In this document: in pieces, positions 5,335-6,062 of the stretch
How the letters are laid out: each line of letters begins with the position of its first letter
How positions within the stretch are numbered: position 1 is the first letter of the stretch
DNA from: Escherichia coli
Lineage (GTDB): Bacteria > Pseudomonadota > Gammaproteobacteria > Enterobacterales > Enterobacteriaceae
Direction: 5' to 3' (one strand)
NCBI RefSeq assembly: GCF_003334815.1
Contig: NZ_QOWO01000021.1
DNA length: 64,000 nucleotides
The notes under the pieces: model-generated
Database searches by the model: none
Told to the model about the DNA's origin: nothing
The model's input: only the letters and a program-made list of their open reading frames with translations
Translations under genes and position numbers: made by a program

Positions 5335-6062
5335 CGCCGGGATCTTTCTTGTGCACAGAAAACCCCCAGCTAGGCTGGGAGTTCTGGAAAGCTTTCAGCT
5401 TTGAGCCAGTTATTAAAACCCCTTTTGATTTGTTAAAACACCTTGCGGTCTGGCAACTGCAAGTGTCAAACAAGAAATCAAAAGGGGGTCCCAATGGGGA
5501 ACGAAAAGAGCTTAGCGCACACCCGATGGAACTGTAAATATCACATAGTATTTGCGCCAAAATACCGAAGACAGGTGTTCTACAGAGAGAAGCGTAGAGC
5601 AACAGGCAGTATTTTGAGAAAGCTGTGTGAGTGGAAAAGTGTACGGATTCTGGAAGCTGAATGCTGTGCAGATCATATCCATATGCTTGTGGAGATCCCG
5701 CCCCAAATGAGCGTATCCGGCTTTATGGGATATCTGAAAGGGAAAAGCAGTCTGATGCTTTACGAGCAGTTTGGTGATTTGAAATTCAAATACAGGAACA
5801 GGGAGTTCTGGTGCAGAGGGTATTACGTCGATACGGTGGGTAAGAACACGGCGAAGATACAGGATTACATAAAGCACCAGCTTGAAGAGGATAAAATGGG
5901 AGAGCAGTTATCGATTCCCTATCCGGGCAGCCCGTTTACGGGCCGTAAGTAACGAAGTTGGATGCAAATGTCAGATCGTGTGCGCCTGTTAGGGCGCGGT
6001 TGGTAAGAGAGCCTTATAGGCGCATTTGAAAAACCTCCGGCTATGCCGGAGGATATTTATTT
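5335..6062 (+). mobile_element. IS200 insertion sequence (IS200/IS605 family); ends approximate
   Basis: Contains a 152-aa TnpA; hairpin-capable sequences near both ends (cccagctaggctggg at the left, cctccggctatgccggagg at the right). Confidence 0.7.
5494..5952 (+). CDS. tnpA: IS200 transposase TnpA (152 aa)
   Basis: MGNEKSLAHTRWNCKYHIVFAPKYRRQVFY... matches IS200 TnpA from memory; the listed ORF 5443-5952 has an upstream in-frame extension. Confidence 0.9.
   Translation: MGNEKSLAHTRWNCKYHIVFAPKYRRQVFYREKRRATGSILRKLCEWKSVRILEAECCADHIHMLVEIPPQMSVSGFMGYLKGKSSLMLYEQFGDLKFKYRNREFWCRGYYVDTVGKNTAKIQDYIKHQLEEDKMGEQLSIPYPGSPFTGRK

Follow-up and report, generated by a model that had tools for sequence, protein, structure and literature searches.

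IS608 and ISDra2 are the mechanistic models of the IS200/IS605 family of insertion sequences. Work on IS200 of Salmonella was reportedly carried out by Lam and Roth, by Beuzon and Casadesus, and by Ellis and Haniford. The "active" and "inactive" copies of IS200 are almost identical in sequence, and their dormancy is a matter of expression control (PMC4513863). Two further reports describe an RNA from the 5' part of the transposase gene, 5'tnpA RNA, that regulates invF and virulence regulons in Salmonella (PMC5435999, PMC12594629).

Here, we describe a copy of IS200 in a stretch of 64,000 nucleotides of Escherichia coli DNA (the window; all positions below are those of the window). The element is complete and is an ordinary IS200 of an already known kind. 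With high confidence, we regard it as a complete, single-gene IS200 of the IS200C type, 711 bp in length, that was put in by a Y1/HUH transposase of its own type and is probably a neutral passenger inherited by one sub-lineage of the island.

Identity and ends of the IS200 copy

The following features were identified on the element and next to it:

4950–5315, plus strand: cdiI, the last immunity gene, intact, the left neighbour (NCBIfam immun_CdiI, 200.7 bits against a cutoff of 60; RefSeq).
5318–5350, plus strand: hairpin of cdiI that resembles an intrinsic terminator, with a 12-bp stem and TCTTTCTT after it; the target site of the element and part of the flank, as it is present in the unoccupied sites.
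5351–6061, plus strand: complete IS200 (IS200C-like), 711 bp (unoccupied sites of ERP001 and 89-3156, the copy near ybhL, 42 right junctions).
5361–5383, plus strand: left-end subterminal hairpin (Rfam alignment), corresponding to the bidirectional terminator at nt 12–34 of Salmonella IS200 (PMC4513863).
5361–5484, plus strand: structured left end and 5'UTR of tnpA (match to Rfam RF01405, STnc490).
5413–5503, minus strand: putative antisense RNA art200, mapped from published positions.
5419–5487, plus strand: stem-loop of the 5'UTR in which the Shine-Dalgarno sequence is sequestered (−22.8 kcal/mol, z = −5.7; role taken from PMC4513863).
5494–5952, plus strand: tnpA, encoding an intact 152-aa Y1 (HUH) transposase (Pfam, NCBIfam, motifs).
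6034–6052, plus strand: right-end subterminal hairpin with an 8-bp stem, CCTCCGGC-TAT-GCCGGAGG (−10 kcal/mol, z = −4.8).
6053–6061, plus strand: right-end tail ATATTTATT, which ends at the inferred cleavage site and is conserved in 42 independent junctions.
6074–6313, minus strand: remnant of a SymE-family toxin gene, the right neighbour (RefSeq; partial Pfam SymE_toxin match; collinear in IS-free strains).

The one long sense ORF of the IS200 stretch was found at 5494–5952 on the plus strand. Its product of 152 aa matched the Pfam family Y1_Tnp (E 1.2e-37) and the NCBIfam equivalog transpos_IS200 (145.9 bits against a curated cutoff of 55). The ORF was intact, and both the HUH motif (H61-I-H63) and the catalytic Tyr125 were present; the exchange Y125F gives the catalytically dead mutant used as a control in work on Salmonella IS200 (PMC4513863). 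At 5361–5484 on the plus strand, Rfam RF01405 (STnc490) was matched over the full model (1–124) with 140.6 bits and an E value of 5.9e-30, against a gathering score of 56. This was the sole credible match in an Rfam scan of 4500–7000 that included SymR-like RNA. The three matches bear out the preliminary description, which had recognised an IS200 at essentially this place.

The element carried the structural characters of the IS200 group, namely a Y1/HUH transposase, tnpA alone, a length of about 0.7 kb, subterminal hairpins at both ends and an STnc490 5'UTR. Terminal inverted repeats were absent (GTGCAC… against …TTTATT), as was a target-site duplication. Within the 711 bp, tnpA was the sole long sense ORF, and there was no tnpB. 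A copy downstream of ybhL, whose TnpA (WP_000526135.1) is annotated as IS200C family and which is an independent insertion with its own unoccupied site, was used as the reference. The window copy was identical to it at 702 of 712 positions (98.6% identity, 10 substitutions), with no indels and with equal length between GTGCAC and ATTTATT. Near-identity along the full length to copies so named makes it a member of IS200C. In a megablast search of 5250–6150 against 5,426 complete E. coli genomes, 3,105 had matches, which carry the annotation IS200/IS605-like element IS200C and number 1 to 35 places per genome. No second copy or fragment of IS200 was found within the 64-kb window.

To locate the exact ends, unoccupied sites were sought by joining both flanks as one query. 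ERP001 matched the whole joined-flank query, and 13 further genomes matched its first 519–523 bases. The span in the record exceeded that of the query by 33 bp in every unoccupied site (14 genomes), which shows that 33 bp first assigned to IS200 belong to the flank. The unoccupied sites of ERP001 and 89-3156 read ...GGGATCTTTCTT|TAACCGTC..., and the unoccupied sequence aligned from two sites was …GAGTAAAGATTCCGGCCACTGCGCCGGGATCTTTCTT|TAACCGTCAGG…. At the occupied site, the left junction was …CTTTCTT|GTGCACAGAAAACCCCC… and the right junction was …GGAGGATATTTATT|TAACCGTC…. The unoccupied site, …CTTTCTT|TAACCG…, differed from the occupied one by the element alone. Comparison of the unoccupied with the occupied junctions therefore gives an insertion of 711 bp at 5351–6061 with no target duplication, although the left junction may slide up to 2 nt leftward owing to flanking T residues. 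On the right side, 42 distinct junctions from other genomes all ended in …GGAGGATATTTATT, and the next base was T in 23, G in 7, A in 6 and C in 6 of them. Together with the unoccupied sites, these junctions place the right end at 6061 and the T at 6062 in the flank.

The element starts 35 bp past the stop codon of cdiI (5315), and 12 bp separate its right end from the stop codon of the minus-strand ORF (6074). The preliminary description had given its extent as 5335–6062, which was nearly right at the right end and 16 bp off at the left end, where part of the cdiI terminator hairpin had been included. Its distance of about 20 bp from the last immunity gene has to be corrected to the 35 bp given above. 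It had also proposed a comparison with related islands lacking the element; this comparison, with the sites of ERP001 and 89-3156, defined a clean insertion of 711 bp. The exact ends permit correct annotation of both the cdiI terminator and the symE remnant.

Two other ends were considered and rejected. The megablast comparison with other IS200C copies gave a left end at 5319; the extra 32 bp aligned with indels and at lower identity, and they occur in unoccupied sites. The alignment extended to 5319 because the cdiI terminator resembles the terminator that precedes the ybhL copy of IS200C. The ybhL copy in turn suggested an end at 6062 (712 bp), whereas the local unoccupied sites keep this T and the base after …ATATTTATT was variable in the 42 junctions. 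Measured against its own unoccupied site (H88, EFF60), the ybhL insertion was 712 bp, against 711 bp for the window insertion measured in the same way. This discrepancy of one T lies within a T-run and is probably due to slippage.

The same data decide whether the element could be a different or an incomplete member of the IS200/IS605 family, a result that the preliminary description, which spoke of IS200 itself, had said would overturn its reading. The alignment to the copy annotated as IS200C showed equal length, 98.6% identity and no indels, both ends were present as set by the unoccupied sites, and tnpB was absent. The chance of a different or incomplete member is negligible, and the assignment to a complete IS200 stands.

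Neighbouring genes

The annotation of the identical locus in strain EC556 confirmed that the element lies between orphan CDI modules and hsdR/hsdM remnants, as first described. According to the annotation of ERP001, IS200 occupies a gap of 47 bp between two convergent genes, cdiI and the symE remnant. Fragments of hsdR (C-terminal) and hsdM (N-terminal) were located further to the right of the symE remnant. The terminator hairpin of cdiI (5318–5347) folded as DNA with −9.6 kcal/mol (z = −4.2), and its minus-strand version was called terminator-like. After the insertion, the cdiI terminator retains both its hairpin and its T-tract.

The right neighbour had been described as a gene fragment, and this was confirmed: it is a remnant of a SymE-family toxin gene that is degenerate at its far (5') end. 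The ORF encodes 79 aa, runs from 6313 to a stop codon at 6074, and is named SymE-family type I toxin in RefSeq. Positions 30–53 of the 54-position Pfam SymE_toxin model were the only ones recognisable (E 0.0046), so that the ORF does not carry a full domain. An in-frame stop upstream closes the reading frame, and in strain A12 the orthologous counterpart carries a pseudogene annotation, with the N-terminus missing. Neither the symE-like ORF nor the upstream CdiA-CT ORF matched any NCBIfam family.

The preliminary description had also suggested that the element may have truncated the flanking gene, which we can reject. The remnant is defective at its far 5' end, and the element is located past its stop codon, at a distance of 12 bp. 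The whole region of the remnant, including the upstream stop, was collinear in ERP001 and A12, both of which are free of the element, and IS200 therefore did not truncate it. Transcripts of the symE remnant would now meet the right-end hairpin of IS200. On the minus strand this hairpin is followed by TTTTTC and is terminator-like, so that the symE remnant still has a terminator after it. Judged from this geometry, the insertion appears to be neutral and to have no functional effect.

Three further observations were made at this boundary. A strong sigma-70-like promoter was located at 6362–6390 on the plus strand, the strand opposite to the symE remnant, with TCGCCA, a 17-nt spacer and TG-TATAAT (10 of 12 matches). 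It was identical in ERP001 and A12 and sits where the promoter of a SymR-like antisense RNA would be expected; an Rfam match was not obtained at this place. A block of cdiI, its terminator and roughly 120 bp from the 3' end of the symE remnant (4950 to about 6185 in the window) was shared by at least 13 genomes, which diverged beyond it. The 3' fragment of symE seems to travel with this CdiA-CT/CdiI module. At the one locus inspected in strain 89-3156, the unit of cdiI and symE fragment adjoined a tRNA-Sec integrase island.

Regulation, mobility and age of the insertion

Both end hairpins folded significantly better than shuffled sequences, and the right-end hairpin was terminator-like on both strands. 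The two stems were related in sequence (CCCCCAGC-TAG-GCTGGGGG on the left and CCTCCGGC-TAT-GCCGGAGG on the right), and GAAAA preceded each of them. When nt 1 of IS200 is set at 5350, the published 5' ends of art200 (IS200 nt 153/154) fall at 5502/5503, where the third codon of tnpA ends. By analogy with published work on IS200 and IS608, from which we infer its regulation, the window copy would be expected to be nearly silent, with a terminator hairpin at the left end, a Shine-Dalgarno sequence held in a stem-loop and an antisense RNA, art200. The STnc490 model matched the strand that is sense to tnpA and took in the left-end terminator hairpin, whereas the STnc490/art200 RNA of PMC4513863 is antisense to the 5'UTR; the strand or extent of the STnc490 family may not correspond to art200.

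The 5'UTR structure was fully conserved, as the STnc490 match shows, and regulation in trans by 5'tnpA RNA has been published for Salmonella (PMC5435999, PMC12594629). Both points would suit a copy retained as a domesticated regulator, with the 5'tnpA fragment or art200 acting in trans on host genes. However, nothing at the locus points to a role as trans-regulator, the insertion is confined to 6 of 5,426 genomes and is missing from related islands. Many E. coli strains also have other IS200 copies that are able to supply the same RNAs. We consider domestication very improbable, and a neutral passenger remains the preferred reading.

Compared with the IS200C consensus protein, TnpA of the window copy carried two changes, I37T and K71Q. 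A G-to-A change at 5380 produced a C-A mismatch in the left-end stem, which folded with −7.8 kcal/mol against −11.7 kcal/mol for the consensus (about 4 kcal/mol lost). The base 5380A was common to the copies of EC556, 52F4, C5 and EC581 and was not present in A19 or in the ybhL copy. As judged from the sequence, the mismatch in the left stem or the changes in TnpA could lower mobility.

These private mutations (the mismatch at 5380, I37T and K71Q) raise the question of whether the copy is a structurally complete yet immobile fossil. The weakening of the left-end hairpin from −11.7 to −7.8 kcal/mol speaks for this, as do the ten substitutions by which it departs from the IS200C type; that type reaches 17–27 places per genome in the strains listed. 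Two of the carriers of the insertion, 52F4 and A19, had just 2 matching places each. In a third, EC581, consensus IS200C sequence has replaced the centre of the copy, a sign that the remaining copies of EC581 may be of the consensus type. On the other side, the ORF is intact with HUH and Tyr125, I37T and K71Q lie outside the catalytic motifs, and dormancy has been attributed to expression control and not to sequence differences (PMC4513863). Disablement by private mutations is conceivable and, on this evidence, rather unlikely. The earlier statement that IS200 rarely transposes holds for Salmonella in the laboratory (PMC4513863) and is weaker for E. coli, in which some lineages have 17–35 places; three of the carrier strains had 33 matching places each in the megablast search.

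The insertion was found in 6 of the 5,426 complete E. coli genomes. The carriers were EC556, EC571 and EC581 (pig, Japan), 52F4 (calf, Switzerland), C5 (cow) and A19 (vampire bat, Mexico). The IS200 copies of EC556, 52F4 and C5 were identical to that of the window, and the copy of A19 differed at 4 positions of the element. In EC581, all seven central positions (window 5550–5835) had the IS200C consensus base, while the variant bases near the ends were kept. This pattern looks like a gene-conversion patch from another IS200 copy in that genome, whose record has 33 matching places. In C5, the island (orphan CDI modules, IS200, symE remnant and hsd fragments) was located on a record of 214 kb, NZ_CP010123.1, named "plasmid A". 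The record may represent a genuine plasmid-borne copy or a piece of the chromosome under a wrong label.

The insertion was absent in the 14 genomes that share the 3' junction of cdiI. A12 lacks it as well; the symE remnant, the hsd fragments and the helicase are shared by this strain, whose CDI module to the left is different. Strain 154 is probably without the insertion too, as by coordinates its match to the window starts at 6076. Because it is common to the six carriers, the insertion predates their divergence. Its absence in the 14 genomes with the cdiI junction and in A12 makes it a derived marker of one sub-lineage that is not ancestral to the island. The insertion is older than the divergence of the six carriers and younger than both of the junctions that it separates. 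The preliminary description had held the element to be more likely a long-standing marker of the island than a recent event, and this was right in that the insertion predates the divergence of the six carriers, but not for the island as a whole, given the junction-sharing genomes and A12 that lack it. The occupied and unoccupied states provide a simple marker that splits one sub-lineage (six complete genomes) of this CDI/restriction island from its relatives. Beyond this, the insertion has little biological import: the IS has long been known and is mostly dormant, and this further copy sits in a harmless intergenic position.

Insertion next to terminators and comparison with known elements

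According to published work on IS200 and IS608, from which the mechanism is taken by analogy, the insertion would have occurred via the single-strand "peel and paste" route of the IS200/IS605 family. This route would leave no target duplication, and the element would land immediately 3' of a short T-rich target. The target here would be the T-tract end of the intrinsic terminator of cdiI (…GGGATCTTTCTT|GTGCAC…).

Species-representative genomes were scanned for the 22-nt core of the left-end hairpin, which gave 120 loci. The loci came from Yersinia pestis, Vibrio ruber, Brenneria and Edwardsiella and from MAGs assigned to Mailhella, Desulfovibrio, Bacillota and others. A left flank counted as terminator-like when five or more of its final 8 nt were T, the 40-nt fold reached −8 kcal/mol or better and the foot of the hairpin lay no more than 9 nt from the boundary. 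By this definition, 105 of 114 unique left flanks were terminator-like; of 321 control positions taken within these loci, 2 were. The bases just ahead of the element were nearly always rich in T, the final hexamer being TTTTTT in 51 cases, TTTATT in 13 and TTTCTT in 4. The window copy, which has TTTCTT at this place as well, obeys the rule of abutting a terminator. Several copies of Y. pestis stood directly past the right end of another copy.

The association of IS200-type copies with terminators is not new. An association with upstream terminator-like sequences has already been reported statistically, in a preprint that reads it as a niche limiting transposase expression (10.1101/2025.07.22.666184). 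The literature searched, which did not extend to the older subscription papers on IS200 and IS1541 insertion sites, otherwise gave no explicit account of terminators as targets of IS200 or IS1541. From the related hairpins of the element, the GAAAA before each of them and a right end that consists of a hairpin and a T-rich tail, we infer that a terminator may mimic the right end. A single-stranded terminator, with its GC hairpin and T-tract, would then be chosen as a target through its likeness to the right end (hairpin and ATATTTATT), and GAAAA may pair with the T-tract. We give this proposal an even chance. If true, it would be a case of structure-guided targeting comparable to that of group IIC introns. 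It would also explain why the window copy stands flush with the cdiI terminator and why some copies in Y. pestis follow the right end of another. Abutting a terminator is in any case a property of the family and is not specific to the window locus.

Two observations from the scan are recorded here. In Y. pestis NCTC5923 (loci L080, L081, L083 and L097), IS1541 formed direct tandems that read …GGAGGATATTTATT|GTGCCC…, one of the junctions having an extra T. These tandems would fit a role of the right end itself as a target. The exact 22-nt core was also present in MAGs of distant phyla, often at contig ends (Bacillota, Peptococcaceae, Desulfovibrionaceae, Elusimicrobiaceae and Saccharibacteria; L006–L077), which reflects either a very wide spread of the IS200 lineage or contaminated bins.

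Among the described elements, IS200C of E. coli has the same organisation as the window copy, with a left-end hairpin, a structured 5'UTR, a 152-aa TnpA and a right-end hairpin. The window copy differs from it by ten substitutions, two of them in TnpA (I37T and K71Q) and one that breaks a pair of the left stem. NCBI names the TnpA of the window copy "IS200/IS605 family transposase" and not "IS200C family". IS200 of Salmonella was compared through its published landmarks (PMC4513863). With nt 1 at 5350, the hairpin at 12–34, the stem-loop at 69–138, the art200 ends at 153/154 and Tyr125 were all in register, while the length was 707 bp in Salmonella and 711 bp in the window.

IS1541 of Y. pestis has a 22-nt core of the left hairpin and a right end (…CCGGAGGATATTTATT) identical to those of the window copy, and it is likewise inserted after terminator-like hairpins. 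In contrast, the first bases of the two elements differ (GTGCCCAG in IS1541 against GTGCACAG in the window copy), and IS1541 is present in dozens of copies per Y. pestis genome, some of them in tandem. IS608 and ISDra2 are likewise Y1/HUH elements that have subterminal hairpins instead of inverted repeats, make no duplication and insert 3' of a short target adjacent to the left end. As read from the sequence, the geometry is also similar, with the cleavage site about 10 nt from the foot of each hairpin. Unlike IS608 and ISDra2, the window copy of IS200 has no tnpB, and its putative target is a T-tract behind a hairpin and not TTAC or TTGAT.
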